A stretch of 64,000 nt of DNA from an uncultured Clostridia bacterium (GTDB taxonomy: Bacteria; Bacillota; Clostridia; TANB77; CAG-508), in the NCBI GenBank assembly GCA_944388045.1, contig CALXHG010000005.1:5590-69589 (forward strand). The letters are read 5' to 3'. Under the pieces are notes generated by a model. The model saw only the letters and a list, made by a program, of their open reading frames with translations, made no database searches and was not told where the DNA came from. Made by a program: the position numbers and the translations under genes. How positions within the stretch are numbered: the first letter of the stretch is position 1; every line of letters starts with the position of its first letter. This document shows, piece by piece, positions 14,808 through 61,280 of this stretch.

Positions 14808-14821
14808 AAATAAATTTAAAT

Positions 14822-18079: not shown

Positions 18080-18165
18080 GGACAGGTGGCCGAGTGGCTA
18101 AAGGCGGCAGACTGTAAATCTGTTCTCATTTGAGTACGATGGTTCGAATCCATCCCTGTCCACCA
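18080..18165 (+). tRNA. tRNA-Tyr (GTA) with long variable arm and encoded CCA
   Basis: Acceptor stem GGACAGG/CCTGTCC. Anticodon loop CTGTAAA with GTA at 18114-18116. T-arm GGTTCGAATCC. 3' ACCA. Confidence 0.95.
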
Positions 18166-39807: not shown

Positions 39808-41541
39808 ATGAAACATAGAAATAATCTTAAATTAAATATAGAAAATAAACCAAAAAAAATCAAAAATAGTAATTCTCCAAAAAGAATAATAATAGTCTTA
39901 ATATTATTAGTTTTATGTGTATTTATTTTAAATAAAGCCAAAAATTATGTTATTGGGAAAGCCGAAAATGATATTAATTTAATAATCAATAACAGGAATG
40001 TAACAGAAGATTTAAAACATCCAATAGTAAAAGAAAATGAAATAATATATATGTCTATGGATGATATAGAAAATTATTTTGATAAATACATTTATATTGA
40101 AGAAGAAATAAATGAAATAGTAACAACATATGATAAACAAATAGCAAGTATTGGGTTTGAAACAAATAAATTAACACTAAATGGTTCAACAAAAAAAGTA
40201 CAAGCACATGCAATAAAAAAAGAAGAAGTAATATATTTACCAATATCAGAAATGCAAGAAGTATATAATGTAGAGATGGCAGTATCAGACAAAAATATTA
40301 CTTTAGATTCACTTGATAGAAAGCAAGTAAAAGCATATACAAAATCAAATTTATCAGTAAAATGGAAAGCTGACTTTTTCTCCAAAACAGTAGATAAAGT
40401 AAAAAAGGGAGATGTTCTTATTGCGATAGAAGATGTAGATAAAGGTTGGACAAAAGTAAGAACACAAAATGGAGAAGTTGGATATGTAAAAACAAATAAA
40501 CTAACCAATTACACAACTGTTAGGGATGATTTTATAGAAGAAAAGCAAATACAAGGAAAAGTAAACATGTTTTGGGACTATTACTCAAAATATGTAAAAT
40601 GCCCAGACAGAACAGGACAAGTAATAGAAGGAGTAAATGTTGTATCACCATCATTTTTCTATATAGATGAAGATGGAGAATTCCAAGACAAAGTAGGAGA
40701 TGCAGGAAAACAATATATTGAATGGGCACATTCAAATAATTATAAAGTATGGGCAATGGTACAAAGTGATGAAGCAGGAAAAAAAACAACATCAACAATA
40801 TTAAATAGTTATGCAAAAAGACAAGAATTAATAGAAAAAATAATAGAAGTATGTGTAGAATATCAACTAGATGGTATAAATATAGATTTTGAAAATATGT
40901 ATGAAGCAGATAAAGACAAATTTTCAAGATTTATAATAGAACTAGAGCCACGTTTAAATGAAATAGGAGCAGTATTATCAGTAGATGTAACAGCACCAGA
41001 TGGAGATCCAAATTGGTCTTTATGTTATGACAGAAATGTTATAGGACATGTAGCGGACTATATAGTATTTATGGCATATGACCAATATGGAAATTCAAGC
41101 ACAAAACCAGGAACAACAGCAGGATATAATTGGGTAGAAACTAATGTAAAAAAATTTATAGATAATGAAGATGTAGAACCTAGTAAAATAATACTTGGAA
41201 TGCCTTTATATACAAGACAATGGACAATAGATTCTAATGGAGAAATAAAAAAAGATGGTAGCGGTGTTGTAAGTATGTTAAATACCAAAATACCAAATAA
41301 TGTAGAAAAACAATGGGATGAAGAATTAAAACAATATTATATAGAATATAAATCTGGTAGTGACACAATAAAAATGTGGATAGAAGATGGAACATCTATT
41401 GCTGCAAAAGTTTCTCTTGTTACTAAATATGGATTAGCAGGAACATCATGTTGGAGAAAAGATATGGAAACTTCAAATATTTGGAGTGTAATAAATACAG
41501 AATTAACAAAAGCAGAACAAAACTCAAGTGAAACAGAATAA
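39808..41541 (+). CDS. Membrane-anchored GH18 glycosyl hydrolase with copper-amine-oxidase-like stalk and SH3 domains (YdhD-like)
   Basis: TM anchor, SH3b-like segment (GWTKVRTQNGEVGYVK), GH18 catalytic DGINIDFE. Confidence 0.8.
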   Translation: MKHRNNLKLNIENKPKKIKNSNSPKRIIIVLILLVLCVFILNKAKNYVIGKAENDINLIINNRNVTEDLKHPIVKENEIIYMSMDDIENYFDKYIYIEEEINEIVTTYDKQIASIGFETNKLTLNGSTKKVQAHAIKKEEVIYLPISEMQEVYNVEMAVSDKNITLDSLDRKQVKAYTKSNLSVKWKADFFSKTVDKVKKGDVLIAIEDVDKGWTKVRTQNGEVGYVKTNKLTNYTTVRDDFIEEKQIQGKVNMFWDYYSKYVKCPDRTGQVIEGVNVVSPSFFYIDEDGEFQDKVGDAGKQYIEWAHSNNYKVWAMVQSDEAGKKTTSTILNSYAKRQELIEKIIEVCVEYQLDGINIDFENMYEADKDKFSRFIIELEPRLNEIGAVLSVDVTAPDGDPNWSLCYDRNVIGHVADYIVFMAYDQYGNSSTKPGTTAGYNWVETNVKKFIDNEDVEPSKIILGMPLYTRQWTIDSNGEIKKDGSGVVSMLNTKIPNNVEKQWDEELKQYYIEYKSGSDTIKMWIEDGTSIAAKVSLVTKYGLAGTSCWRKDMETSNIWSVINTELTKAEQNSSETE

Positions 41542-41735
41542 TATTAAGTAGGAAAGTATAATTTCCCTTTTATTGTAAGACTAAATTCTAGATTTAAACA
41601 AAATCTAGAATTTACTTTTAAACTTAAAGATTAATAAAAAAATACTTTAAAAAGCTTGTAAAAATTAACAAAAAAAGATATAATAATAATATATCTTATG
41701 TGTTTACAAAAAAGAAAAAGAGAGGAGCGATTTTT

Positions 41736-42260
41736 ATGGAAATAAAAGTAACAGGAAAAGAACTTAAGATAACAGACGCAATCAATGATTATATAGAAAG
41801 GAAAATGGACAGAATAGAAAAATATTTTGAAAATGCAGAAGCAGAAGTAATTGCCAGACTAGAAAAAAATACACAAATAGCAGAAATAAAAGTAATGGCA
41901 AATGGAGAAACATTCAGAGCAGTAACAGAGGATAAAGACTTATATGCTTCAATAGATAAAGATATAGATATATTAGAAGGACAAATTAGAAAATACAAAA
42001 CCAAAAAGGAAAAAATGCAAAAAGAATCAAGTTTAAAAGAACTTAATTCACAAAAAGTAGTACATGAAGTAGAAGATGAAATATTAAAAGTAGAATATTA
42101 TGAATTAAAACCAATAACACCAGAAGATGCAAAATTAATATTAGAAGAGAAGCCAACACAAATGTTTTTAACATTTGTAAATCAAGATTCTGGAAAAGTA
42201 AATGTAATACACAGATTAAAAGATGGTAAAAACTATGGTTTAATAGAGCCAGAAGCATAG
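41736..42260 (+). CDS. hpf: Ribosome hibernation-promoting factor (long HPF)
   Basis: MEIKVTGKELKITDAINDYIERK N-terminus and a C-terminal dimerisation domain. AGAGGAG RBS. Confidence 0.9.
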   Translation: MEIKVTGKELKITDAINDYIERKMDRIEKYFENAEAEVIARLEKNTQIAEIKVMANGETFRAVTEDKDLYASIDKDIDILEGQIRKYKTKKEKMQKESSLKELNSQKVVHEVEDEILKVEYYELKPITPEDAKLILEEKPTQMFLTFVNQDSGKVNVIHRLKDGKNYGLIEPEA

Positions 42261-42557: not shown

Positions 42558-43064
42558 GTGAAAAGACAAATAATTATAATAAGAATAATACTAATAATTT
42601 TATTAATAATAACATTTTTTTATATTTTTAATTTTTCAAGCCAAGACTCAGAAAAATCTGGGAACTTAAGCAGAACAATAACAGTAAGTGTAACAAAAAA
42701 TATAAAAAAAATACAAGAACTAGATTATAATAAAAAAAATGATGTATTAAATACAATTGAAAAAGTAATTAGAAAATTAGCTCATTTTTCTGAATATACT
42801 TTTTTAGGAATATTATTAATGTCATTAATGAGTACATATAATTTAAAACAGAGAAATAAATTTGTATTAAGTATAGGAATAGGGTTTTTATATGCATGTT
42901 CTGATGAGTTCCATCAGTTATTTGTACCAGGAAGAACTGCAAAATTCACAGATGTATTAATAGATACGTCAGGTGTTATTGTAGGCAGTGTAATAATATT
43001 TCTAGTAATTTCAATTATAAAAAAAACAATAGAAAAAAAGAAAAAATTGGTAGTTGATAATTAA
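42558..43064 (+). CDS. VanZ-family membrane protein
   Basis: RKLAHFSEYTFLG and DEFHQLFVPGR motifs. GTG start after AAGGAGG. Confidence 0.8.
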   Translation: MKRQIIIIRIILIILLIITFFYIFNFSSQDSEKSGNLSRTITVSVTKNIKKIQELDYNKKNDVLNTIEKVIRKLAHFSEYTFLGILLMSLMSTYNLKQRNKFVLSIGIGFLYACSDEFHQLFVPGRTAKFTDVLIDTSGVIVGSVIIFLVISIIKKTIEKKKKLVVDN

Positions 43065-43200: not shown

Positions 43201-43229
43201 TTGACATATATATATAAAGATTATATAAT
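43201..43229 (+). promoter_or_regulatory. Consensus promoter TTGACA-N17-TATAAT upstream of surface protein 1
   Basis: Hexamers at 43201-43206 and 43224-43229. Confidence 0.55.
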
Positions 43230-43487: not shown

Positions 43488-46400
43488 ATGAAAAAAAGAA
43501 TTATTAGTTTTCTAATTTTACTAACAATGTTAAGCACAATTATTTTAGGAGCAACATCAAATGTAGTTATGGCAAAAACAGAAGAGATGGTTCAGAATTC
43601 TTCAAATAAAACATTAGCAACAACTGTTTCTAATAATGAAACAGTATCTATAAATAATTTGAACAATGAGACTGCAACAATGAACGAACCAAGCAATGAG
43701 ACATATACATTAGATGAATTATTAAATGATGAACAAGAACAAAATGAATTAAAACAACTTTTTGAAAAAGTATCAAATCCAATAGAAGAGGAAAAAGAAG
43801 AAAAAGCAGTATTAACAACAATGCAAGACATAACATATAAAGTGCCAAATGAAGGAGGTTCATCAGAGTATTTACAAGGTATATATATACCAGGATATGA
43901 CTTTTTTATTAATACCAGTACTGTTACAAACACACAAACAAATGAAACAAAAAGTTATTTTAAAATATTTAAACATGATGTAATAAACAATACAAATAAA
44001 AAAATCTATGATTCTACAAATGATAATCCTTCTGTATATGAAGTAACATATCGTGTAAGAGATGATATGTTATACATATTATATGTAGCAGATTACAAAA
44101 CATCAGTTAAAAAATATTCAACAACAAAAATTATTGGAATTAACTTAGTTACAGAAGCAATAGTAATGAAACAAAGTTTTAATATAGAATTAGATATGTC
44201 ATATATTGAAAGTTTTGCAGTAGATGGAGCTCAAAGAGTATATTTACCATATAAAGGTACAGGACTAAAAGTATTTGATAAAAACGGAAAAGTATTATAT
44301 GATTTTGCCCCAACTGATAATCAAGAAGGAAAATATTTTAATTATATAAAAGGAATATCTCCTAATGATAAAATATTATTTTTTGAGGTAATGTATAAAT
44401 ATAGTGAGTCTAAATATAATACTCAAACTGTTTACGAAGGAATGCAAAAACTAAACAATGGTGTATTTGTAAATAAAGAAGGATGGACTGTTTATGGAAG
44501 AACGTTTCCTAGCATATATTCACAAAACCCAATGTGGTACTTTATAGATGATAATGGAACATATGCTGTAGACCAATATGGAAGAATAGCAAAATTTAAC
44601 TATAATGTAACAGATACAAATATGGGAGTTGACAGAGAAATTGTTTTAGATTTAGCATCTGGGGTATATGATTATGGAGCATATGCTTATAGACCATATT
44701 ACCCAAATGTATGTACAAATGAAAATAACATATATATTGTAGGAGCAAATGGCAATATATATATAGTAAATAAAACAACATTAAAATGTACTCAATATAT
44801 TTCAACAGGAATAAAAGATTATACAGATATAAGAAGCATAAATTATTATGAACAAAGTATTTTCATGTTAACAAAACCAGATTTCGATTATTACATGAAA
44901 CAAATAAAATTAAATAACAGTAATATAACTACAATACAAAATCTTATAATATCAGAAAATAAAACAACATCACGTACAATATCAGATATAGTAGCAAAAT
45001 ATAAACAAACATCACCAAAATATGATTATAATAAATCAATATATAAAATAACACCAAGTTGGAAAAATCCATATAAAGCAGGAAGTTTGCAAGATGGAGT
45101 TGTAACTGATACAATAAACAGACTAAATTATTATAGATGGTTAGTTGGAGTAAATGAAATAGCAGTAAATACAAGTAAATTAGACAGAAATCAAAAAGGA
45201 GCAGTAATAAGTAAAGCAAATGGAACAATAAGTCACTATCCAACTCAACCAAGTGATATGGATGATGCATTTTATGAAGAAGCATATGATGGATGTAATG
45301 CAAAATATGAAGAAGGAGATACATATTCAGGAAATGTATCTTATGGAGACAGGAGACCATATCAAGCAATAGAAGGATTTGTAAGTGACTTGTATAATGT
45401 AACAATAGGAAGTGCAACAGGACACAGACAAAGTATGTTAGACCCAAAAGCAACTGCAATAAGTTTTGGACAATGCGAAGAATTTTCAACAGCATCAGTA
45501 TATTATGATGAAGATAAAGATGTAACAAGTTCTAAATTTTATGCATTTCCATCAGCAGGATATTTTCCAAACACAGAAATGGCAGTAAGTGAATATTGGT
45601 CAATATATTTAACTGGAGCAGTATCAGGAACAGCAAGAGTAAACTTTACATATAAAGGAAAAACATATGCAGGAACAGGTTTATTATTTGAAAGCGGATA
45701 TCCAGCATTAAGTTTTAGAATGCCAGATGAGTTACAAAAACTTTTAGGTAGTACATATGATAACATACCTGGTGGAACAGAAATACAAGTAGAAGTATTG
45801 GGATTAAAAGATGAAAACTTAAATAATGTAACATATAGATATAAAGTAAACTTTTTTGATATGAAAGCAGAAATGCCAAGTCCACAAGATGTGGCAGATT
45901 TAATATTTGATTATAAATTTTATGCAGATAATTATCCAGATTTAAAGAAAGCATTTGGATATAATGAGGGAGCATTAAAAAATCATTGGTTAACAGATGG
46001 AATAAAAGAAGGAAGACAATCATCAGCAGTATTTGACCTTAAATATTATGTATATAATAATGAAGATATAAAGAAAGCCTTTGGAACAAATTATAATTCA
46101 GCATATAATCATTTTATAACAACAGGATTTTCAGAATTAAGACCAAGTTCAAATGAATATTATGGAAATTATTATAAAGATAATAATATAGATTTAAAAA
46201 ATTTTTCAGCTTATAATTTAATGAAACATTATATGCAATTTGGTAGAAAAGAAGGAAGAAAAGCAACAAATGTAATAGATAAAACACCAGTAGATATAAG
46301 ACAATATTTGCTAGATTATAATATATATACAACATTAAAAGATAATATAGACTTACAAAAAGCCTTTGGAAATGATCAAGGGGCATTAAAAAATCATTGG

Positions 46401-47357
46401 GAAACATATGGAATACCAGAAGGAAGAATAGCATCATTAGTATTTGATGCAGAATTTTACTTAAATAAATATGCGGACTTAAAGAAGGCTTTTGGAAATA
46501 ATTATACAAAAGCATATGAACATTTTGTAACAGACGGAATCAAAGAAGGAAGACAGGGTTCAAGATATTTTGATGTAAAATATTATTTAACAACACATAA
46601 AGATATAAAAAATGTATATGGTGATAATTATACAAAAGCTTTAAAACACTTCGTAACAAAAGGAATGAAAGAAGGAAGAGTAGCAAGTGCAGAATTTAAT
46701 ATAAAACAATATAAAGAAAATTATGAAGATTTAAGAAAAGCATATGGAAATAATTATATAGAATATTATAAACATTATATAAATCATGGATTAAAAGAAG
46801 GAAGAAATGCACAAACGCCAATAATAAGGAAATTATCAACATTTGAAGAATATTTGTACAGAGAGAATGTATATTTAAGATTAAATAATGATGTAAAAAA
46901 AGCATTTGGAAATAATAGTACAAAAATAAAAAATCATTGGATAACAGATGGAATAAAACAAGGTAAAATAGCATCATTAGTATTTGATGCAAAATATTAT
47001 TTAAATAAATATCCAGATTTAAAGAAAACCTTTGGAAATGACTATGAAAGAGCATATAATCATTTTATAACAGCAGGAATAAAAGAAGGAAGACAAGGTT
47101 CAAAGTATTTTAATGCAAAATATTATATGAATAAATATCCAGATTTAAAGAAAGCCTTTGGAACAAATTATCAAAAAGCATTAGAACATTTTGTAATGAA
47201 TGGAATAGGAGAAGGAAGAGTAGGAAGCGCAGAATTTAATGTAAAAAATTATAGAGCAAATTATAAAGATTTGGATAAAGCATATGGAAAAGTTTATATA
47301 GAATATTATCTTCATTATATGAATTTTGGGATAAAAGAAGGAAGAAAACCAATTTAA
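43488..47357 (+). CDS. Secreted multidomain protein 1: signal peptide, unassigned beta-rich N-domain, CAP/SCP (YkwD-like) domain, 11 copies of a ~42-aa C-terminal repeat
   Basis: MKKRIISFLILLTMLSTIILGATSNVVMA signal peptide after the GGGG RBS. CAP motifs INRLNYYRWL and GHRQSMLDP..ISFG. Repeats span 45906-47354. Confidence 0.85.
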   Translation: MKKRIISFLILLTMLSTIILGATSNVVMAKTEEMVQNSSNKTLATTVSNNETVSINNLNNETATMNEPSNETYTLDELLNDEQEQNELKQLFEKVSNPIEEEKEEKAVLTTMQDITYKVPNEGGSSEYLQGIYIPGYDFFINTSTVTNTQTNETKSYFKIFKHDVINNTNKKIYDSTNDNPSVYEVTYRVRDDMLYILYVADYKTSVKKYSTTKIIGINLVTEAIVMKQSFNIELDMSYIESFAVDGAQRVYLPYKGTGLKVFDKNGKVLYDFAPTDNQEGKYFNYIKGISPNDKILFFEVMYKYSESKYNTQTVYEGMQKLNNGVFVNKEGWTVYGRTFPSIYSQNPMWYFIDDNGTYAVDQYGRIAKFNYNVTDTNMGVDREIVLDLASGVYDYGAYAYRPYYPNVCTNENNIYIVGANGNIYIVNKTTLKCTQYISTGIKDYTDIRSINYYEQSIFMLTKPDFDYYMKQIKLNNSNITTIQNLIISENKTTSRTISDIVAKYKQTSPKYDYNKSIYKITPSWKNPYKAGSLQDGVVTDTINRLNYYRWLVGVNEIAVNTSKLDRNQKGAVISKANGTISHYPTQPSDMDDAFYEEAYDGCNAKYEEGDTYSGNVSYGDRRPYQAIEGFVSDLYNVTIGSATGHRQSMLDPKATAISFGQCEEFSTASVYYDEDKDVTSSKFYAFPSAGYFPNTEMAVSEYWSIYLTGAVSGTARVNFTYKGKTYAGTGLLFESGYPALSFRMPDELQKLLGSTYDNIPGGTEIQVEVLGLKDENLNNVTYRYKVNFFDMKAEMPSPQDVADLIFDYKFYADNYPDLKKAFGYNEGALKNHWLTDGIKEGRQSSAVFDLKYYVYNNEDIKKAFGTNYNSAYNHFITTGFSELRPSSNEYYGNYYKDNNIDLKNFSAYNLMKHYMQFGRKEGRKATNVIDKTPVDIRQYLLDYNIYTTLKDNIDLQKAFGNDQGALKNHWETYGIPEGRIASLVFDAEFYLNKYADLKKAFGNNYTKAYEHFVTDGIKEGRQGSRYFDVKYYLTTHKDIKNVYGDNYTKALKHFVTKGMKEGRVASAEFNIKQYKENYEDLRKAYGNNYIEYYKHYINHGLKEGRNAQTPIIRKLSTFEEYLYRENVYLRLNNDVKKAFGNNSTKIKNHWITDGIKQGKIASLVFDAKYYLNKYPDLKKTFGNDYERAYNHFITAGIKEGRQGSKYFNAKYYMNKYPDLKKAFGTNYQKALEHFVMNGIGEGRVGSAEFNVKNYRANYKDLDKAYGKVYIEYYLHYMNFGIKEGRKPI

Positions 47358-47409
47358 ACAATTAAAATAAAGATTGAATATTGACACTTAGTGCGAAAAT
47401 CTTTAAACT

Positions 47410-47449
47410 AAAAATAGTATAGATATAGAAATATATTTATACTATTTTT
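47410..47449 (+). terminator. Rho-independent terminator
   Basis: AAAAATAGTATA / TATACTATTTTT. A near-identical hairpin follows paralogue 3. Confidence 0.7.
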
Positions 47450-47530
47450 GTGTTAAAAAATAATGCAACTATTACTTTATACAATTAAAATGTTTAAAAT
47501 CTAATACTATGGAAAATTGTAATTTAATAA

Positions 47531-47559
47531 TTGACAAAAATTCAAAACAAAAATATAAT
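47531..47559 (+). promoter_or_regulatory. Consensus promoter TTGACA-N17-TATAAT upstream of surface protein 2
   Basis: Hexamers at 47531-47536 and 47554-47559. Confidence 0.55.
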
Positions 47560-47679
47560 AATGTTGTAAATTTTAAATAGGAGTCTTTAAATATTTACAT
47601 CTTTATAAATTCTTTTAAAATTTAAAATCATACAAAAGAATAATTAAAAGACATGGAAATAAAAAGAAAGGGGAACAAA

Positions 47680-50196
47680 ATGAAAAAAATAGTTAATAGA
47701 CTAGTTATTTTACTTGCAATTTTTATTGCATTAATATTAGGAATAAATTCAAATGAAGTTATGGCAAAAAATACAGAAGACATAATAATATCAGAAAATG
47801 ATACAATAACACACACAATAAAAGAAATAGTAGAAAAATACAAAGAAACATTACCAAAATTTAATTATAATGAATCAATTTATAAAACAACACCAAGTTG
47901 GGAAAATCCATATTCAGCAGGAAGTATAAAAGATAAAGTAATAACAGATACAATAAACAGACTAAACTATTATAGATGGCTAACAGGTGTAGATGAAATA
48001 AAAATAAATTATGATAAATTAGACAGAAATCAAAAAGGAGCAGTTTTAAGTAAGGCAAATGAAAGCTTAAGCCATACTCCAGAAAAACCAATTGATATGG
48101 ATGATGAATTTTATCAAGAAGCATATGATGGATGTAATGCAAAATATGAAGAAGGAGATACATACTCAGGAAATGTATCTATGGGAGATTTAAGACCTTA
48201 TCAAGCAATAGAGTCCTATGTAAATGAATTATATAATGTTACTCCAGAAAGTGCAACAGGACATAGACAAAGTATGTTAGATCCTACTGCAACATCAATG
48301 AGTTTTGGACATTGTGAAGAATATTCAACAGTATCTATATTTTATGATTATAATAAAGATGTTACAAGTTCAAAATTTTATGCATATCCACCAGCAGGAT
48401 ATTTTCCAAATACAGAAATGGCAGTAAGTGAATATTGGTCAATATATTTTACAGATGAAGTATCTGGAACTGCAAGAGTAAATTTTACATATAACGGAAA
48501 AGTTTACCAAGGAACAGGATTAGTTTTTGAAAAAAATTATCCAGTATTAAGTTTTAGAATGCCTGAGGAATTAGAAAATATTTTAGGTTATCCATATGAA
48601 TATATTCCAGTAGATACAGAAATACAAGTAGAAATATTAGGGTTACAAGATAAAAATTCAAATAATTTAATATATAAATATACTGTAAACTTTTTTGATA
48701 TGGTGGCAGAAAATCCAACATCACAAGATGTAGCAAATTTAATATTTGATTATAAATTTTATGCAGATAAATACCCTGAACTAAAAGAAAAATATGGTTA
48801 TAATGAAACACTATTAAGAAGTCACTGGTTAACAACAGGAATAAATGAAGGAAGACAATCTTCAGCAGTATTTGATCTTGAATATTATGTATATAATAAC
48901 GAAGATATAAAGAAAGCCTTTGGAACAAATTATAATTCAGCATATAATCATTTTATAACAATAGGATTTTCAGAACTAAGACCAAGCTCAAATGAATATT
49001 ATGGAAAATATTATAAAAACAATAATTCAGATTTAAAAAATTTCTCAGCATATAATTTAATGAAACATTATATGCAATTTGGTAAAAAAGAAGGAAGAAA
49101 AGCAACAAATGTAATAGATAAAACACCAATAGGTATAAAACAATACTTACTGGATTATGATATATATACAACATTAAAAAATAACAATGATTTAAAAACA
49201 GCTTATGGAAATAATCAAGAAGCATTAAAAAATCATTGGGAGAGATTTGGAATAAAAGAAGGAAGAAAAGCATCATTAGTATTTGATGCAAAATTTTATT
49301 TAAATAAATATACAGATTTAAAGAAAGCGTTCGGAAATAATTATGCAAAAGCATATGAACATTTTGTTGAAAATGGAATAAATGAAGGAAGACAAGGTTC
49401 AATGTATTTTGATGTAAAATGGTTTGCAGAAAATAATAAAGATATAAAACAAATTTATGGAACAAATTATACAAAAATATTAGAATATTTTGTAACAAAT
49501 GGAATAAAAGAAGGAAAACAAGGAAGTGCAGAATTTAATGTAAAAATTTATAGAGAAAATTATACAGATTTAAGAAATGCATATGGAACAAATTACAAGG
49601 AATATTATAAACACTATATAGATTATGGAAATGCAGAAGGAAGAAATGGATTAACAGAAGTAGTAAGAAAACTAACAGAAATAGAAGAATATTTATATAA
49701 TGAAAAAGTATATACAAGAGCAAATGAAAACATAGCAGAACTATATAAAAATGATTCAACAAAAATAAAAAATCATTGGATAAAATATGGAATTAAAGAA
49801 GGAAAAATAGCATCATTAGTATTTGATGCAAAATATTATTTAAATAAATATCCAGACTTAAAGAAAACCTTTGGAAATGACTATGAAAGAGCATATAATC
49901 ATTTTATAACAACAGGAATAAAAGAAGGAAGACAAGGTTCAATGTATTTTAGTGCAAAATATTATATAAACCAATATCCAGACTTAAAGAAAGCTTTTGG
50001 ATCAAATTATAAAAACGCATTAGAACATTTCGTAATAAATGGAATAGGAGAAGGAAGAGTAGGAAGTGCAGAATTTAATATGAAAAATTATAGAGCAAAT
50101 TATAAAGATTTAGATAAAGCATATGGAAAAGTTTATATAGAATATTATCTTCATTATATGAATTTTGGAATAAACGAAGGAAGAAAGCCTATATAG
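47680..50196 (+). CDS. Secreted protein 2: signal peptide, CAP/SCP domain, 11 copies of the ~42-aa repeat (lacks the N-domain)
   Basis: MKKIVNRLVILLAIFIALILGINSNEVMA signal peptide. Collinear with residues ~490 to the end of protein 1. Repeats span 48745-50193. Confidence 0.85.
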   Translation: MKKIVNRLVILLAIFIALILGINSNEVMAKNTEDIIISENDTITHTIKEIVEKYKETLPKFNYNESIYKTTPSWENPYSAGSIKDKVITDTINRLNYYRWLTGVDEIKINYDKLDRNQKGAVLSKANESLSHTPEKPIDMDDEFYQEAYDGCNAKYEEGDTYSGNVSMGDLRPYQAIESYVNELYNVTPESATGHRQSMLDPTATSMSFGHCEEYSTVSIFYDYNKDVTSSKFYAYPPAGYFPNTEMAVSEYWSIYFTDEVSGTARVNFTYNGKVYQGTGLVFEKNYPVLSFRMPEELENILGYPYEYIPVDTEIQVEILGLQDKNSNNLIYKYTVNFFDMVAENPTSQDVANLIFDYKFYADKYPELKEKYGYNETLLRSHWLTTGINEGRQSSAVFDLEYYVYNNEDIKKAFGTNYNSAYNHFITIGFSELRPSSNEYYGKYYKNNNSDLKNFSAYNLMKHYMQFGKKEGRKATNVIDKTPIGIKQYLLDYDIYTTLKNNNDLKTAYGNNQEALKNHWERFGIKEGRKASLVFDAKFYLNKYTDLKKAFGNNYAKAYEHFVENGINEGRQGSMYFDVKWFAENNKDIKQIYGTNYTKILEYFVTNGIKEGKQGSAEFNVKIYRENYTDLRNAYGTNYKEYYKHYIDYGNAEGRNGLTEVVRKLTEIEEYLYNEKVYTRANENIAELYKNDSTKIKNHWIKYGIKEGKIASLVFDAKYYLNKYPDLKKTFGNDYERAYNHFITTGIKEGRQGSMYFSAKYYINQYPDLKKAFGSNYKNALEHFVINGIGEGRVGSAEFNMKNYRANYKDLDKAYGKVYIEYYLHYMNFGINEGRKPI

Positions 50197-50300
50197 AATT
50201 TTATAGATGCTATAAAAGGTTGAAAAATAAATGTTTTGTATAAACAGAATATTGTTATTTTCCAGCCTTTTAAGAGTATTTAGAAGGGAATGTGATTAAA

Positions 50301-53300
50301 ATGAAAAAAAGAATAATATTTTTTGCTACTTTAACAATAATTCTAAATATAATAATTTTAGGAATAAATTCAAATATAGTTATAGCAAATATAAATGAAA
50401 CTGAAAATAAAACATATTCAATAGAATATGATGATCCATATGATATTGGTACAACGGATTATATTAGAGGAGCATCATATAATGGAAAAAATTACTATTT
50501 AAACGAATATTCTGTTTATCATACTACAGGCGATTTTTCTGAAAGTTATTTTAAAATATATAAGCATAACACAATAAGTAATACAAATACATTAATATAT
50601 GATGCAACAAGTGAGAATGGACATGTACTTGCAACAAATGTAAACAACAATAAATTATATGTATTATATATTACAGATTATTCTTTTTCAGCAGGTTCTT
50701 CAAAAGAATATGATACATGTTATATAATAGGAATAGATTTAAAAAATGATAAATTAATTTTAAAACAAAAATATAATTCTAAACAAATGGATATTTTTTA
50801 TACCTCATTTACTGTAGACAGCCAACAAAGAGCATATTTAGTATATGATTATGACGGATTGCAAGTGTTTGATAAAAACGGAAAAGAAATATTTAACAAA
50901 AAACCAACAGAAGATGCCAAAGAAACAGGAAACTTTATATTTTTAAAAGGTGTAAGTCCAAATGACCAAATATTATTTTTTGAAAAGATGAATCGTTCAA
51001 CATTAACTAATTATTATGCATTAAGTATAGGTGAAGGAATGCAAAAATTAAATAATGGAGTATTTGCAAATCAAGAAGAATGGACTACTTATGGAAGGAC
51101 ATTTCCAAATAATTGGTCTTATAATCCAATATGGCATTTTATAGATGAAGAAGGCAATTATGCAGTAGATCAATATGGAAGATTAGCAAAATTTGATTAT
51201 AATACAAATTCAAATATGATGTGTGATAGAGAATTTTTAATAGATTTAAAATCAACTGTAGAAGATGTTACATATAAACCACTATATCCAAGTGTTGCTC
51301 AAAATGAAAATATAATATATTTGCTAGGAGCAAATAATAATATATATATTATAAACAAAGATACATTACAATATAATCAATATATTGCAACAGGAATAGA
51401 AGAATATAATGAAATATTTAATATAACATATATGAATCAAAGTTTGTTATTACTAAAAAACAATCGTGGAAAATACTATGTTGAACAAATAAAAATTAAT
51501 AATAATAATATACAAACTATTAAAGATACATTGATTACAGAAAATAGTACAACATTACACACAATTAAAGATATAGTAGAAAAGTATAAACAAACATCAC
51601 CAAAATATGATTATAATAAATCGATATATAAAACAACACCTAGTTGGAAAAGCCCATATAAAGCAGGAAGTTTGCAAGATGAAGTTATAACAGATACAAT
51701 TAATAAATTAAATTATTATAGATGGCTAGTTGGTGTAGATGAAATAGGAATCAATTATAATAAATTAGAAAGAAACCAAAAAGGAGCAGTATTAAGTAAA
51801 GCAAATGGCAGAATTAGCCATTATCCAACAAAGCCAAATGATATGGATGAAGAATTTTATGATGAAGCATATGATGGATGTAATATAAAATATGAAGAAG
51901 GAGATACATATTCTGGTAATATTTCATCTGGTATCAGAAAACCATATCAGGTAATAGAAGGATTTGTAAGCGATTTAAATAATTATTCTCTTAATAGTGC
52001 AACAGGGCATAGACAAAGTATGTTAGACCCAAAAGCAACAGCAATGAGTTTTGGACAATGTGAAGAATATACAACAGCATCAGTATATTATGATGATGAA
52101 AAAGATGTAAAAAAATCAGAATTTTATTCTTTTCCATCTGCAGGATTTTTTCCAAATACAGAAATGAAATTAAATGAATACTGGTCAATATATTTAACAA
52201 ATGCAATTTCTGGCACTGCAAGAATTAATTTTACATATAAAGGTGAAACATATAGTGGAACAAATTTAATGTTTGAAAATGGATATCCTGTATTAAATTT
52301 TAAAATGCCAAGTAAATTACAAAAAATTATTAATTCTGAAAATACAAATATTCCTGGTGGAACAGAAATACAAGTAGAATTAGTAGGTCTAAAAGATGAA
52401 AACTTAAATAATATAACATATAGATATACAGTAAACTTTTTTGATATGAAATCAGAAATGCCAAGTTCACAAGAGGTAGCAAATTTAATATTTGATTATA
52501 AATTTTATGCAGATAAATATCCAGATTTAAAGCAAGCCTTTGGATATAATGAAACAGCATTAAAAAATCATTGGTTAACAAATGGAATAAAAGAAGGAAG
52601 ACAATCATCAGCAGTATTTGACCTTAAATATTATGTATATAATAATGAAGATATAAAAAAAGCCTTTGGAACAAATTATAATTCTGCATATAATCATTTT
52701 ATAACAATAGGATTTTCAGAATTAAGACCAAGTTCAAATGAATATTATGGAAAATATTATAAAAATAATAATTCAGATTTAAAAAATTTCTCAGCATATA
52801 ATTTAATGAAACATTATATGAGATTTGGTAAAAAAGAAGGAAGAAAAGCAACAAATGTAATAGATAAAACACCAATAGATATAACACCATATTTACTAGA
52901 TTATAATATATATATATCATATAAAAATAACAAAGATTTAAAAACAGCTTATGGAAATAATCAAACGGCATTAAAAAATCATTGGAAAACATTTGGAATA
53001 AGAGAAGGAAGAATAGCATCAATAGTATTTGATGCAAAATATTACTTAAATAAATATCCAGACTTAAAGAAAGCTTTTGGAAATAATTATGAAAAAGCAT
53101 ATGAACATTTTATAGAAAATGGAATAAATGAAGGAAGACAAGGTTCAAGATATTTTGATGTAAAATATTATTTAACAACATATAAAGATATAAAAAATGT
53201 ATATGGAGAAAATTACACAAAAGCCTTAAAACACTTTGTAACCAAAGGAATAGGAGAAGGAAGAGTAGGAAGTGCAGAATTTAATTTAAAAAATTATAAA

Positions 53301-53402
53301 GCAAATTATAAAGATTTGGTTAAAGCATATGGAAATGTTCATATAGAATATTATCTTCATTATATGAATTTTGGAATAAACGAAGGAAGAAAACCTGTAT
53401 AA
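50301..53402 (+). CDS. Secreted protein 3: signal peptide, beta-rich N-domain, CAP/SCP domain, 7 copies of the ~42-aa repeat
   Basis: MKKRIIFFATLTIILNIIILGINSNIVIA signal peptide. Collinear with protein 1 but missing the last 4-repeat block. Repeats span 52491-53399. Confidence 0.85.
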   Translation: MKKRIIFFATLTIILNIIILGINSNIVIANINETENKTYSIEYDDPYDIGTTDYIRGASYNGKNYYLNEYSVYHTTGDFSESYFKIYKHNTISNTNTLIYDATSENGHVLATNVNNNKLYVLYITDYSFSAGSSKEYDTCYIIGIDLKNDKLILKQKYNSKQMDIFYTSFTVDSQQRAYLVYDYDGLQVFDKNGKEIFNKKPTEDAKETGNFIFLKGVSPNDQILFFEKMNRSTLTNYYALSIGEGMQKLNNGVFANQEEWTTYGRTFPNNWSYNPIWHFIDEEGNYAVDQYGRLAKFDYNTNSNMMCDREFLIDLKSTVEDVTYKPLYPSVAQNENIIYLLGANNNIYIINKDTLQYNQYIATGIEEYNEIFNITYMNQSLLLLKNNRGKYYVEQIKINNNNIQTIKDTLITENSTTLHTIKDIVEKYKQTSPKYDYNKSIYKTTPSWKSPYKAGSLQDEVITDTINKLNYYRWLVGVDEIGINYNKLERNQKGAVLSKANGRISHYPTKPNDMDEEFYDEAYDGCNIKYEEGDTYSGNISSGIRKPYQVIEGFVSDLNNYSLNSATGHRQSMLDPKATAMSFGQCEEYTTASVYYDDEKDVKKSEFYSFPSAGFFPNTEMKLNEYWSIYLTNAISGTARINFTYKGETYSGTNLMFENGYPVLNFKMPSKLQKIINSENTNIPGGTEIQVELVGLKDENLNNITYRYTVNFFDMKSEMPSSQEVANLIFDYKFYADKYPDLKQAFGYNETALKNHWLTNGIKEGRQSSAVFDLKYYVYNNEDIKKAFGTNYNSAYNHFITIGFSELRPSSNEYYGKYYKNNNSDLKNFSAYNLMKHYMRFGKKEGRKATNVIDKTPIDITPYLLDYNIYISYKNNKDLKTAYGNNQTALKNHWKTFGIREGRIASIVFDAKYYLNKYPDLKKAFGNNYEKAYEHFIENGINEGRQGSRYFDVKYYLTTYKDIKNVYGENYTKALKHFVTKGIGEGRVGSAEFNLKNYKANYKDLVKAYGNVHIEYYLHYMNFGINEGRKPV

Positions 53403-53853: not shown

Positions 53854-54543
53854 ATGAATATTGATATAGTTAATCAAGAACCAGTTAACACTCAAACAAG
53901 TTTAAAGCTTAGAGAAAGACAAAGTATAAAACATAAACAACCATATTTATATTTTAAAAGAGGAATAGATATTGTATTATCATCAATTGCACTTGTATTA
54001 CTATCACCAGTATTTCTTATAATATCTATAGCAATAAAATTAGAATCAAAAGGTCCAGTATTTTTTGGACATAAAAGAATAGGAAAAAATGGAAAAACAA
54101 TAAAAATATACAAATTTAGATCTATGGTACAAAATGCGGAAGATTTGATTAAAAAATTTACGCCAGAGCAAATGAAAGAATATAAGGAAAATTATAAACT
54201 AACAGATGACCCAAGAGTAACAAAAGTTGGAAAGTTTATAAGAAAAACAAGTTTAGATGAATTACCTCAATTAATAAATATAATAAAAGGAGATTTGTCA
54301 ATTATAGGACCAAGACCAGTTATTGCAGAAGAATTAGAAAAGTATGGACATAATATGGACAAGTTTTTGAGTGTGACTCCTGGACTAACAGGATATTGGG
54401 CAGCAAATGGCAGAAGCAATACTACATATGAACAAAGAATGGAAATGGAACTGTATTATGTAGATAATATTTCGTTTAAAATGGATTTAAAAGTGTTTTT
54501 TAAAACAATAGAATCAGTAATAAAGAAAGAGGGAGCAATATAA
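53854..54543 (+). CDS. Small phosphoglycosyl transferase (bacterial sugar transferase, PF02397-type), copy 1
   Basis: One TM segment, KFRSM, DELPQL.N...GDLSIIGPRP. Confidence 0.85.
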   Translation: MNIDIVNQEPVNTQTSLKLRERQSIKHKQPYLYFKRGIDIVLSSIALVLLSPVFLIISIAIKLESKGPVFFGHKRIGKNGKTIKIYKFRSMVQNAEDLIKKFTPEQMKEYKENYKLTDDPRVTKVGKFIRKTSLDELPQLINIIKGDLSIIGPRPVIAEELEKYGHNMDKFLSVTPGLTGYWAANGRSNTTYEQRMEMELYYVDNISFKMDLKVFFKTIESVIKKEGAI

Positions 54544-54667
54544 TTTCTGGTTAGAAAGTAATTGTTATCATAAAATTGTATAAATTTAAACAAAATATTG
54601 AATTTACATAATTTATGATGTATAATATTATAGATTAAAAAGTTTATCTGAGGGGGAAATATGATAA

Positions 54668-55384
54668 ATGGAAATAATGAAAGAAAATCTAAAATATGTT
54701 GCAAAAGATAATTTAACATCATTAGTACCAGAAGATGCATTTGATGTACCAAAAAAATCACAAAAAAAAGCTGATATGTTCTTAAAAAGAACAATAGATA
54801 TATTTATTAGTATTTTTGGCGTAGTAGCTTTATTTCCGCTAACAATAAGTATTTACATAGCAAATATAATATGCAAAGATAAAGGACCAATTTTCTATAT
54901 ACAAAATAGAATTGGACAAAATGGTAAAATATTTAAATTATATAAATATCGTTCGATGGTTGTAGGAGCTGACGATATACTTGAAAAGTATTTAGAAGAA
55001 AATGAAGAAGCCAAAAAAGAGTATCAGGAATATAAAAAACTAAAAAATGATCCAAGAATAACTAAAGTAGGTGAGTTTATTAGAAAAACAAGCATAGATG
55101 AATTTCCACAATTTATAAATGTATTAAAAGGAGATATGAGCTTAGTTGGTCCAAGACCTTACTTAGAGAAAGAAAAAGAAGATATGAATGGTTATTATAA
55201 ATTCATAATAACTTGTAAACCTGGTTTAACAGGATTGTGGCAAATTAGCGGAAGAAGTGATTGCACTTTTCCCGAAAGAATAGATTTGGACATGAAATAT
55301 TACAATAACCATAACTTAAAATCTGATATAAAAATATTATTTAAAACAGCTATGAAGATTATAAAAAGAGAGGGAGCTATATAG
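54668..55384 (+). CDS. Small phosphoglycosyl transferase (bacterial sugar transferase), copy 2
   Basis: Same architecture: KYRSM, DEFPQFINVLKGDMSLVGPRP. Confidence 0.85.
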   Translation: MEIMKENLKYVAKDNLTSLVPEDAFDVPKKSQKKADMFLKRTIDIFISIFGVVALFPLTISIYIANIICKDKGPIFYIQNRIGQNGKIFKLYKYRSMVVGADDILEKYLEENEEAKKEYQEYKKLKNDPRITKVGEFIRKTSIDEFPQFINVLKGDMSLVGPRPYLEKEKEDMNGYYKFIITCKPGLTGLWQISGRSDCTFPERIDLDMKYYNNHNLKSDIKILFKTAMKIIKREGAI

Positions 55385-55468
55385 GGTTAAAGCTATGGTA
55401 TTTGAAATTTTCAAAATATACATAGCTGTTTTTATAAAAAATAAGCATTTAAAGAAAGGTTAACGAAA

Positions 55469-56548
55469 ATGTCAAACAATTCTAATTGTATGTTTTCAAT
55501 AATAATTCCTGTATACAATGCAGAGAAATATATAGAAACAACAGTTAAATCTATATTGAATCAGACTTACAAAAATTTTGAACTACTATTAATAAATGAT
55601 GGTTCAAACGATAATAGTAAACAAATTTGTGAAGAACTTTCAAAAAAAGATTCTAGAATAAGGTTCTTTGATAGAGTAAATGAAGGTGCGTCAAAAAGTA
55701 GAAATTATGGAATCGAAAAATCAAGTTTTGAATATATTTGTTTTTTAGATGCGGATGATTATGTTGAGAACAATATGCTTCAGGAATATGTTAAAATTCT
55801 TGAAAAGTATAAAAATGTTGAAATGATAACTTGTGGATTTTTTTCTGAAATTCTTGATGAAAAAAATCGAAAAAAATCACAAATAGATACTATAAATTAT
55901 ACTGAAAAGTATTATAGTACTTATAAAGAGCTGAAAGATGATTTTGTTACTTTATGGGATAAGGCAATATTGTATAATGTATGGAACAAAGTATATTTGA
56001 AAAGTATAATAAAAAAGTATAATATAACATTTATACAAGCTACGTTAGGCGAAGATGTTTATTTTAATCAACAATATTTGCTAAAAATTAATAGCTTATA
56101 TAATACTAATAAATGTTTTTATCATTATGTTAGAGGAAGAAGTAGTTCAATTACAGGACAATACATTAAAAATTTATTTGATATAAGATTAGAAGAAAAT
56201 GTTAAATTAAAGAAATATTTTAAGCAATTTGGATTAAAAAAAATAGAATATGAAGAATTTTGCGCTAGAAGATATATTGAAAGAACATTAGGATGTATTG
56301 AAAATCTATTCAATTCTCAATGTGAGCTAAAATTTAAAGATAAATATAATGAAATAAAGAGAATTATCTATAATGAATCAACATTAAGAGATTTAAAAAA
56401 GATGAAACCGAAAAGTCTTAAAATAAAAATATTGTTAATTCCATATAGAATAAAATCAGTTCCATTGGCTTTTATAATGGGTAAGATGTTGGCTTTTTGT
56501 AAAATTAAATTACCTAAATTATTCAACTTATTAAAAAATAGGAGATAG
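55469..56548 (+). CDS. Family-2 glycosyltransferase
   Basis: FSIIIPVYNAEKYI...LINDGSND...LDADD. Confidence 0.8.
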   Translation: MSNNSNCMFSIIIPVYNAEKYIETTVKSILNQTYKNFELLLINDGSNDNSKQICEELSKKDSRIRFFDRVNEGASKSRNYGIEKSSFEYICFLDADDYVENNMLQEYVKILEKYKNVEMITCGFFSEILDEKNRKKSQIDTINYTEKYYSTYKELKDDFVTLWDKAILYNVWNKVYLKSIIKKYNITFIQATLGEDVYFNQQYLLKINSLYNTNKCFYHYVRGRSSSITGQYIKNLFDIRLEENVKLKKYFKQFGLKKIEYEEFCARRYIERTLGCIENLFNSQCELKFKDKYNEIKRIIYNESTLRDLKKMKPKSLKIKILLIPYRIKSVPLAFIMGKMLAFCKIKLPKLFNLLKNRR

Positions 56549-56557
56549 GAGTAAAAA

Positions 56558-57670
56558 ATGAAAAAAGTAGATATAATAACATTACATAGAGTTGTAAATT
56601 ATGGTTCAGTATTGCAAACATATGCATTACAAGAAAAAATAAAAGAAAAAGGTTTTGAAGTAGAAACAATTGATTATTATCCTGAAAGACTACATATGAT
56701 TGGAATGCTAAAAAGATTAAAAACAAAAAAAGAAATTCTTAGAAAAAATCCTATTGTTAGACTAGGGGCTCAATGTGTAATATTACCATCATATATTCAA
56801 CGTTTTGCTATGTTTAAAAAATTTTTAAAGAAATATATAAAAATGACAGAAAAAACTTATTTTACAAAAGAAGATATAGAAAAAGATATTCCACAAGCAG
56901 ATATATATTGTACAGGAAGTGATCAAGTGTGGAATAGTGATTGGAATGAAAAGATAGAATATCCATTTTTCTTAGATTTTGTACCAGATAATAAAAAGAG
57001 GATTTCTTATGCGGCTAGTTTTGGAAAAAAATCATTAACTGAAGAAGAAATACCAGAAACAAAAAGATTGATTAATAAATATAAATATTTATCTATGAGA
57101 GAGCTTTCAGGAGTAGAAATTTTAAAAAAACTAGGAAGAGATGATGGAATTAATGTTTTAGATCCAACTTTATTATTAAATAAATCTGAATGGTTAAAAA
57201 TAGCTTCAAACAAATATGTTGGGAAAAAGTATGTTTTGATGTACAATTTGAATAGAAATAAAAAAATATATAAGTATGTGGAAAAATTAGCCAAAGAAAA
57301 GGGATTAGATATCTACTATATTAGTTATAATTTACATGAATGCTTTCATAAAGGAAAAATGAAGTGTAATGTAAAAGTTGAGGACTTTTTATCACTTATT
57401 GCAAATGCAAGCTATGTGGTTACAGATTCATTCCATGCTACAGCTTTTTCAATTAATTTTAATACACCTTTTATGATTATATTTCCAGAAAAATTTAGTA
57501 CAAGATTAGCAAGCATACTAGAAGTTACTGGATTACAAGATAGGATTGTAAAAGATTATAATAATATTGAGTTAGCAGATAAAAGAATTGATTTTACACA
57601 TGCAAACAAAATTTTAGATGAAGAGAGAAAAAAAGCTTCTCTATACTTAGATAAAGCATTAAATGATTAA
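56558..57670 (+). CDS. Polysaccharide pyruvyl transferase family protein
   Basis: ITLHRVVNYGSVLQTYALQ N-terminus and ...TDSFHATAF motif, typical of PF04230-type enzymes. Confidence 0.75.
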   Translation: MKKVDIITLHRVVNYGSVLQTYALQEKIKEKGFEVETIDYYPERLHMIGMLKRLKTKKEILRKNPIVRLGAQCVILPSYIQRFAMFKKFLKKYIKMTEKTYFTKEDIEKDIPQADIYCTGSDQVWNSDWNEKIEYPFFLDFVPDNKKRISYAASFGKKSLTEEEIPETKRLINKYKYLSMRELSGVEILKKLGRDDGINVLDPTLLLNKSEWLKIASNKYVGKKYVLMYNLNRNKKIYKYVEKLAKEKGLDIYYISYNLHECFHKGKMKCNVKVEDFLSLIANASYVVTDSFHATAFSINFNTPFMIIFPEKFSTRLASILEVTGLQDRIVKDYNNIELADKRIDFTHANKILDEERKKASLYLDKALND

Positions 57671-57684
57671 TATTTGGAGGAGTT

Positions 57685-58155
57685 ATGGAAGAAAAATTTA
57701 TCAAAATCATTAATAAAAATGAATGTACAGGATGCCGAGCTTGTGAACAAGTTTGTCCAGTTAATGCTATAACAATGAAAGAGGATATAGCACATCTGAA
57801 GGAATTGCATATCTAATAAAAAATGGTTATAGAACATGGAGGAGTTGTTTTTGGAAGTGCTTATGATGAAAAATTTATGCCAAGACAAATATATGTTACT
57901 AATATAAATGATTTACAAAAGTTGAGAGGTTCTAAATATGTAACAAGTGATACTCAAAATACATTTCCAAAAGTCAAAAAATTTTTAGAAGAAGGAAAAA
58001 TTGTACTTTATACTGGAGTTCCATGTCAAATAGGTGGCCTAAAAAAAGATTATGACAATCTATATACGATAGACATTATTTGCCATGGTGTACCAAGTCA
58101 AAAGATATTTAAAAAGGGGGAAAAATGGATAAAAAAATTAGAGTTTTATATATAG
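57685..58155 (+). pseudogene. Degraded coenzyme F420 hydrogenase/dehydrogenase beta-subunit-like (4Fe-4S) gene
   Basis: ATG 57685 gives CTGCRACEQVCPVNAI, then a TAA at 57814. A second piece (57823-58155) has GGVVFGSAYD, LRGSKYV, GVPCQIGGLK and ICHGVPS. The second ferredoxin motif and the C-terminal domain are absent. Confidence 0.6.
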
Positions 58156-60326: not shown

Positions 60327-60336
60327 AGAGGAAAAA

Positions 60337-61191: not shown

Positions 61192-61280
61192 AAGTGTATT
61201 AAGGAAAAAATAATTATAAATGATAAAAAATATTAATGAAAAAATATATATTATAATGAAAGATGAAGTGAAGAAAGTTT

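Follow-up and report, generated by a model that had tools for sequence, protein, structure and literature searches.

A putative non-covalent cell-wall-binding helical repeat on secreted proteins of Clostridia and their phages

Introduction

The sites at which autolysins, transpeptidases, adhesins and phage lysins act are set by non-covalent wall-binding modules, and LysM, SLH, CWB1, CWB2, CW_7 and SH3b have each been put to use in surface display and in the engineering of endolysins. SLH anchoring depends on a pyruvylated secondary cell-wall polymer (the CsaB system). The Cwp proteins of C. difficile are clustered paralogues with variable heads on a conserved CWB2 wall-binding tail, encoded beside the PSII/anionic-polymer locus, and the CW_7 repeat has an all-alpha fold of three helices. 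Here we describe a ~42-amino-acid tandem repeat that forms the C-terminal tails of three secreted proteins, encoded by adjacent genes in a 64,000-nucleotide, AT-rich (~25% G+C) stretch of DNA from an uncultured Clostridia bacterium (part of contig CALXHG010000005.1; hereafter the window). From comparative evidence, we infer that the repeat is a new family of non-covalent cell-wall-binding module, within a known kind of system.

Results and Discussion

A helical repeat without a curated model

The three consecutive plus-strand genes encode proteins of 1289, 838 and 1033 amino acids (aa) when translation is taken from the MKK starts, as their open reading frame coordinates show and as an earlier, sequence-only reading of this DNA had reported. 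Inspection of the three N-termini bears out the classical signal peptide that the same reading saw on each protein: MKK(R) and a hydrophobic core precede Sec-type sites (VMA before K in proteins 1 and 2, VIA before N in protein 3). Neither an LPXTG motif nor a C-terminal membrane anchor is present in the window proteins, the C-termini of which are EGRKPI or EGRKPV. The three-gene array, with gene 1 unchanged, was identified on nine metagenome contigs.

Cutting at the G..EGR anchor with a regular expression yields 29 repeat copies. A six-frame scan of the whole window with a hidden Markov model (HMM) built from diverse repeat copies gives 29 matches of 20-74 bits (11+11+7), none of them outside the three genes; these are exactly the arrays of 11, 11 and 7 copies counted from the letters alone, and a 30th HMM match, at -2.2 bits, is noise. 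The consensus of 16 copies is xFDxKxYxxxYxDLKKAFGxNYxxAYxHFxTxGIxEGRxGSx, in which positions F2, G19, G33 and E36 are invariant. In all three proteins the array stops 3 residues short of the stop codon. The tails are basic (isoelectric point (pI) 9.1-9.4), with 17-18% aromatic residues, in contrast to the acidic heads and propellers (pI 4.5-5.7).

The repeats are arranged as 1-2-3, 4-5-6-7 and 8-9-10-11, with longer linkers between these blocks, and repeats 8-11 are a duplicate of repeats 4-7. Repeats at the same position in different paralogues are 57-97% identical, whereas non-equivalent positions share only 10-57% identity (60-84% for repeats related via the internal duplication). Protein 3 has a 7-copy tail, which is also the commonest form elsewhere. 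Terminator-like hairpins located within the tails (46431-46450, 46971-46990, 49270-49289, 49810-49829 and 53016-53035) were rejected as a coding artefact of the repeated string GCATCATTAGTATTTGATGC, which encodes ASLVFDA at repeat boundaries.

Amino acid identity between the paralogues climbs toward the C-terminus, from 47% in the N-terminal domain (proteins 1 and 3) through 67-77% in the heads to 79% in the tails; at the DNA level, some tail segments are 94-96% identical, vs 63-65% in the propeller. The gradient fits a variable head on a conserved tail that was possibly gene-converted. Along with copy numbers of 1-3 at related loci, it agrees with the Cwp- and SLH-like logic that had been proposed for this locus, namely variable heads on an invariant tail in clustered paralogues. 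That the heads diverge and vary in copy number suggests that their function is exposed and diversifying.

Scanning the three full proteins with the Pfam and NCBIfam models gave no match in the repeats at E<=1. At this threshold no match to SLH (PF00395), CW_binding_2 (PF04122), ChW, LysM, SH3b, GW, PG_binding_1 or SPOR was identified in any of them. Models for CWB1/choline-binding repeats (PF01473, PF19127) do not match the three proteins either, and the repeat is 42 aa long and helical; CW_7 (PF08230) has no Pfam match and no entry among the PDB fold matches. Thus, SLH, CWB1, CWB2, ChW, LysM, SH3 types, PG_binding and CW_7 are excluded, in line with the sequence-only reading, which had set aside SLH, CWB2, choline-binding, LysM, SH3b, GW and ChW. 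Matches of the full proteins to Castor_Poll_mid (16.5 bits vs a 26.7-bit cutoff), TetR_C_9, MotB and PhaR are noise. Searching PHROG with the tails gave weak, chance-level matches only, and PDB sequence searches with the tail and the repeat profile returned nothing significant. A description of the repeat was not found in the searchable literature, including by literal motif strings.

We modeled the protein 3 tail with AlphaFold2 (AF2) from a 15-sequence alignment of 7-repeat tails. The model is a rigid, all-alpha array (pLDDT 96.1, pTM 0.87) in which each ~42-aa repeat is predicted to form three short helices. Foldseek comparison of this model to the PDB gave two matches, both at E>7. Two of the checks suggested with the sequence-only reading, a repeat search and a structure prediction, converge on a confidently predicted, ordered three-helix array that has no curated Pfam or NCBIfam family, no PDB sequence match and no PDB neighbor below E=7.

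Comparison with known wall-binding systems

Like the repeat, CW_7 (Cpl-7, PF08230, PDB 4CVD) consists of small (~42-48 aa) units that occur in C-terminal tandem on peptidoglycan hydrolases, including phage endolysins, and its mode of attachment is non-covalent, as we predict here. The catalogue of non-covalent wall-binding domains that was used for comparison (PMC5817068) consists of the domain types excluded above and gives peptidoglycan (muropeptides) as the ligand of CW_7. Unlike CW_7, the window repeat has no PF08230 match and follows a different motif (F-D...Y...D-L..A-F-G......H....G..E-G-R), and arrays in its family reach 6-19 copies, with position-specific units and many non-hydrolase heads.

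SLH is a wall-anchoring module at the C-terminus (or the N-terminus) of secreted and S-layer proteins, and it replaces the repeat tail on an orthologous head (P0036). A pyruvyl transferase gene lies beside the repeat-protein gene in the window and in two related loci (L010, L012), a likeness to the SLH system that is only suggestive, as PS_pyruv_trans includes enzymes for capsule and exopolysaccharide (EPS). Lacking is a PF00395 match, and the predicted fold and repeat length differ from those of SLH. The Cwp comparison (CWB2, PF04122) extends to 1-3 tandem copies beside a polysaccharide locus, with LytR-CpsA-Psr (LCP) and VanZ neighbors. However, PF04122 does not match, and CWB2 is an alpha/beta domain that occurs in triplets, whereas this repeat is a 42-aa helical unit present in 7-11 copies.

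ChW and CWB1 are also short tandem repeats, found on clostridial and streptococcal autolysins and endolysins, and ChW replaces the tail on an orthologous head (P0032). They differ in being beta-rich, with GW or aromatic hairpins, whereas this repeat is helical and has no PF07538 or PF01473 match. The ligand of ChW is likewise not known (PMC5817068).

Partner domains and anchor swapping

Homologues of protein 2 fall into two groups, those that share the tail with different heads and those that share the head with other C-termini. The tail-sharing heads are glucosaminidase, GH25, Amidase_2/3, NlpC/P60, YkuD, CHAP, polysaccharide deacetylase, transglutaminase, papain-like protease and LRR+CAP; M23 is also among the recurrent peptidoglycan-enzyme partners (protein 2 and tail-profile searches). 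In these homologues the array nearly always stops exactly 3 residues before the C-terminus. Head-sharing orthologues, often with the same ~450-aa N-terminal domain, have SLH (P0036), dockerin (P0033, P0040) or ChW/Big_2 (P0032, P0035) at the C-terminus. Because known display modules occupy the repeat slot on orthologous heads, we read the repeat tail as one side of an anchor swap.

The tail profile matches at least 1,421 proteins. A single-repeat profile, searched against 1.84 billion representatives, identifies 20,869 clusters (50% identity) at E<=1e-3 and 2,813 at E<=1e-30. Peptidoglycan enzymes are present on 34 of 56 representatives sampled at random from the top matches (13 Amidase_3, 8 GH25, 8 glucosaminidase and 5 YkuD), and DUF5722, lectin-like and lipase heads also occur among the sampled carriers. 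Among 240 repeat proteins the array ends within 6 aa of the C-terminus in 206, the modal copy number is 6-7, and a simple heuristic assigns a signal-peptide-like N-terminus to ~79%; in ~14% the array is internal, and more than 6 aa follow the last repeat. The organisms named for carriers are Lachnospiraceae and Eubacterium metagenome-assembled genomes (MAGs). Almost all homologues are MAG proteins, and a genome-contig scan with protein 2 found one distant Lachnospiraceae MAG locus only.

Further heads returned by the tail profile are PHP, M10/astacin, M57, C39-like and DUF4157. The profile also matches a 530-aa protein with a sortase domain (P0205, PF04203) at E 4.4e-76 over about half the tail length, which suggests that a covalent-anchoring enzyme may itself be positioned by the repeat module.

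The repeat in phage endolysins

Of 98 viral loci confirmed by scanning IMG/VR with a paired-repeat alignment, 80 were retained; the 7-repeat alignment gave no confirmed match in IMG/VR. In some of these sequences a single ~85-aa repeat pair forms the extreme C-terminus of endolysins of ~240-480 aa. The pair follows a GH24 lysozyme (L085, L083), a glucosaminidase with an amidase (Amidase_3, or Amidase_2 with or without PG_binding_1; L091, L090, L080) or an amidase that matches a PHROG endolysin family (phrog_435; L029). The lysin that combines glucosaminidase, Amidase_3 and the pair also matches a PHROG 'endolysin', and one CHAP lysin has four repeats followed by LysM. Judged by architecture, the repeat pair is non-catalytic and lies on the C-terminal side of the lysin catalytic domain. 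A PhaLP 2.0 preprint remarks that, of the unannotated domains found together with endolysin catalytic domains, many are probably cell-wall-binding domains still to be recognised. We take the endolysin slot as independent, function-linked evidence that the repeat unit is probably a domain of this kind.

Searching INPHARED phages with the tail (tblastn) identified one human-faecal contig, the 'unverified bacteriophage' MT836085.1. It was rejected as a source of a phage endolysin: the match (L004:3190-6900) is a secreted protein of 1236 aa in which linkers separate five repeat pairs, encoded directly downstream of two glycosyltransferase-like genes, and the contig is probably a bacterial fragment.

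Propeller, CAP-like and beta-sandwich domains of the heads

The sequence-only reading had noted, and could not place, a beta-rich N-terminal domain on proteins 1 and 3. We modeled aa 25-730 of protein 3 with AF2 (pLDDT 87, pTM 0.77), and in this model aa ~39-412 are all-beta (pLDDT ~90). Foldseek comparison of the non-repeat model to the PDB gave 756 matches at E<=1e-3. Nearly all of the best 50 are structures that contain a propeller, such as DCAF1 WDR, Cdc4, Tako8 and tetrathionate hydrolase, with E down to 3.5e-9. The domain is predicted to be a beta-propeller, as a fold-level assignment that extends to protein 1 by homology. In protein 3 the propeller is followed by the alpha/beta region that bears the CAP match and then by a beta-sandwich.

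The CAP/SCP/YkwD-like label given earlier to all three proteins is borderline. The heads have the GHRxSMLDP....SFG motif, and the proteins are secreted, as for bacterial SCP/CAP proteins (YkwD-like, PF00188). However, the scores straddle the curated threshold (15.6-22.9 vs 21.1 bits). Proteins 1, 2 and 3 at full length score 16.5 (aa 591-661 of protein 1), 19.2 and 15.6 bits, below the gathering threshold of PF00188, whereas the isolated protein 2 head exceeds it, at 22.9 bits (E=1.7e-4). CAP matches at E<0.1 occur in 7 of 15 diverse heads. In the AF2 model, aa ~416-597 of protein 3 form helices and strands in a CAP-compatible alpha/beta arrangement. Propeller matches saturated the fold search with this model, and no relative was found among PDB sequences with the head or a 15-sequence head profile. 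The CAP assignment is marginal.

Genomic neighborhood

The features of the window and of the related loci are given in Table 1. Gene 1 has a strong ribosome-binding site (AAAGGGG) 7 nt 5' of its ATG at 43488. Upstream, the order is PcsB-like M23 and CtpB, then GreA, LexA, the GH18/SH3 protein, HPF and VanZ; the left flank of GH18+SH3_3, HPF and VanZ genes is conserved in L002, L005 and L010, and the VanZ gene is a neighbor in L011 and L012 as well. The sole tRNA found by ARAGORN, tRNA-Tyr (GTA) at 18080-18165, is also the sole Rfam match in the window.

Table 1. Coordinates of the repeat-protein genes, their domains and neighboring features in the window, with the related loci that have polysaccharide genes.
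Feature	Position	Strand	Identity	Description
GH18 + SH3_3 protein	39808-41541			577 aa; weak Cu_amine_oxidN1 match in addition
HPF	41700-42260
VanZ-family membrane protein	42558-43064	+		Pfam VanZ, 90.5 bits
Promoter-like site, gene 1	43201-43229	+		TTGACA-17-TATAAT, 12/12, intergenic; consensus match only
Gene 1	43488-47357	+		Product starts MKKR; signal peptide, acidic N/E/T-rich linker, beta-propeller, CAP-like/beta-sandwich head, 11-repeat tail
Gene 1 N-domain	43863-44954	+		aa 126-489; predicted beta-propeller by homology to the modeled protein 3 domain
Gene 1 head	44955-45896	+		aa 490-803; CAP-like alpha-beta-alpha region and beta-sandwich; phmmer alignment to protein 2 head
Gene 1 tail	45903-47351	+		11 repeats, 3+4+4; HMM matches and position-specific identity matrix; pI 9.31
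Promoter-like site, gene 2	47531-47559	+		TTGACA-17-TATAAT, 12/12, intergenic; consensus match only
Gene 2	47680-50196	+		Signal peptide, CAP-like/beta-sandwich head 47794-48735, 11-repeat tail 48742-50190; without propeller
Gene 3	50301-53402	+		Signal peptide, propeller ~50394-51539, CAP-like ~51546-52091, beta-sandwich ~52122-52442, 7-repeat tail 52488-53396
Wall/surface polysaccharide locus	53854-62303	+		2x Bac_transf, GT2, pyruvyl transferase 56558-57670, GT4, EpsG-type polymerase, 2x GT2 (Pfam)
L010			70%	2 copies with a MazE/PIN toxin-antitoxin pair between; polysaccharide locus including pyruvyl transferase
L002			66%	1 copy; Wzy, flippase, UDP-glucose dehydrogenase
L011			58%	1 copy; LytR-CpsA-Psr ligase immediately upstream
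L012			52%	1 copy; gene inside the locus, between pyruvyl transferase/flippase and Glf/rml genes

A polysaccharide locus adjoins or encloses the repeat-protein gene in five lineages (52-100% identity); it is not next to the SLH-anchored orthologue. Three of the five loci encode a polysaccharide pyruvyl transferase (in the window, at L010:21919-23828, where it is fused to FrhB-like and ferredoxin domains, and at L012:7236-8558). The pyruvyl transferases, or the UDP-glucose dehydrogenase in L002, would make the polymer anionic, and the window locus is a candidate source of the ligand. As relatives have one, two or three copies of the gene, the locus is plastic. The MazE/PIN pair that interrupts the tandem propeller-CAP-repeat genes in L010 is located at 14157-14814.

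Proposed function and alternatives

We consider it likely that these are Sec-secreted surface proteins in which a conserved, basic, helical array binds a wall glycopolymer and so keeps a variable acidic head attached non-covalently to the envelope. After export by Sec, the basic, aromatic-rich array would bind the glycopolymer and the acidic head would be presented outward. An anionic secondary wall polysaccharide (pyruvylated or uronic-acid-containing), for example the product of the adjacent locus, is the preferred candidate ligand because tail and head are oppositely charged and because orthologues keep their place beside polysaccharide loci. Peptidoglycan itself is the main alternative, given the broad use of the module by autolysins and endolysins. 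The suggestion in the sequence-only reading that the tail could be a new surface-anchoring module thus gains computational support (no known family or structure, C-terminal position on secreted proteins that are mostly peptidoglycan enzymes, the endolysin slot, the anchor swap and the identity gradient): all the computational tests able to overturn it favored it, and anchoring is probable on these grounds. In Clostridia and their phages, we propose, the repeat serves generally to target proteins to the wall.

Several observations weigh against wall anchoring. The repeat profile matches RTX, Calx-beta, cadherin-like and lipase-domain proteins at E~1e-100, and giant proteins of the representative library (P0349, P0387, P0391, P0326, P0277, P0328) have 11-19 back-to-back copies of a repeat variant. 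In the RTX-type proteins, which are presumably Gram-negative and type-1-secreted, the variant reads TFDGLEYIASYGDLINAFG....HYI.YG..EGR (also written YIASYGDLINAFG...HYI.YG..EGR), and no Pfam model covers these repeats. Foldseek matches in BFVD show the repeat, in one to a few copies, on glycosyltransferases of giant viruses, on an FkbM methyltransferase and on a dTDP-sugar reductase (~20-48% identity; ~30-48% for matches of repeat length, 40-100 aa), in keeping with the likeness that the sequence-only reading saw to a motif at the ends of some glycosyltransferases. A thick Gram-positive wall cannot be the ligand on the RTX and giant-virus proteins, and the repeat superfamily is therefore wider than a Gram-positive anchor.

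The commonest viral carrier is not an endolysin. It is a secreted protein encoded beside an integrase; in L038, the sole locus examined in detail, the carrier gene lies directly upstream of a tyrosine integrase (L038:4320-5495). The polysaccharide synteny is seen only for propeller-CAP orthologues: we rejected it as general to all tail proteins, as a GH25-tail gene (L009) is in an unrelated context away from such a locus, so the synteny could reflect head function and not the tail ligand. The conserved D in 'PDL', the G ending helix B and the G ending helix C look structural, and therefore no binding site can be named. Localisation and binding are predicted by comparison.

The commonest viral carrier (L038:3248-4261 and ~40 similar IMG/VR loci, e.g., L032, L045 and L069, many of them near contig ends) is 323-338 aa long, with a signal peptide and a ~250-aa head without a Pfam or PHROG match. 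Given the integrase neighbor in L038, it looks like a prophage accessory gene ('moron'), the product of which would decorate the wall of the lysogen.

One alternative is a generic lectin-like glycan-binding module that, much like a carbohydrate-binding module, directs the head to a polysaccharide that is external or secreted (own capsule/EPS, host mucin or dietary glycan) and is not an anchor to the producer's own wall. In its favor are the related copies on glycosyltransferases and sugar enzymes of giant viruses and on RTX and Calx-beta proteins of Gram-negative type, the DUF5722, lectin-like and lipase heads, and the synteny with a variable polysaccharide locus. However, the 34 sampled peptidoglycan-enzyme partners act on the producer's own peptidoglycan, phage endolysins have the repeat in the slot of a binding domain, and orthologous heads exchange it for SLH or ChW, which are self-wall anchors. 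We regard this alternative as unlikely. It overlaps with wall anchoring if the glycan is a wall polysaccharide, and all cases would be accounted for by a generic glycan-binding fold that Clostridia and their phages recruited for wall binding.

Still less probable, and in our view quite improbable, is that the array serves protein-protein assembly or acts as a spacer (an S-layer-like self-associating lattice or a rigid stalk) without binding glycan. The rigid, ordered body that is predicted, the position-specific repeats, the long back-to-back arrays in giant RTX adhesins (where repeats often serve as stalks) and the presence of dockerin, a protein-binding module, among the swapped anchors would be explained in this way. 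A single 85-aa pair that ends an endolysin of ~240-480 aa cannot be a stalk, and the basic charge, aromatic richness and bias toward peptidoglycan-enzyme partners fit wall binding better.

We dismiss almost entirely the idea that the extreme C-terminal position marks a secretion or sorting signal (type-1-secretion-like or an uncharacterised export tag), for which speak the array end exactly 3 aa before the C-terminus in nearly all cases and the co-occurrence with RTX repeats in some proteins, as a Sec signal peptide is already present at the N-terminus of the window proteins and of most relatives, ~14% of the arrays are followed by more than 6 aa of protein, and 300-480 aa of ordered repeats far exceeds any known export tag.

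Implications for gut Clostridia

More than 20,000 protein clusters carry the repeat, yet it has no Pfam or NCBIfam model, PDB match or description in the searchable literature. Defining it would annotate thousands of 'hypothetical' C-terminal regions, and would provide a handle on surface protein display in uncultured gut Clostridia and binding domains for lysins against them. The conserved position of the genes beside variable polysaccharide loci, which often include a pyruvyl transferase, offers a testable ligand hypothesis. A broader possibility, which we raise tentatively and hold to be doubtful as a whole, is that the repeat is an unrecognised, widespread glycan-recognition fold (of Gram-positive wall proteins, endolysins, RTX adhesins and giant-virus and bacterial glycosyltransferases) and a third major display system of Clostridia, beside SLH with its pyruvylated secondary cell-wall polymer and CWB2 with PSII. 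If this is true, the repeat and a pyruvylated or otherwise anionic wall polysaccharide from the adjacent locus would organise much of the surface proteome and the autolysin set of Lachnospiraceae-type gut commensals.

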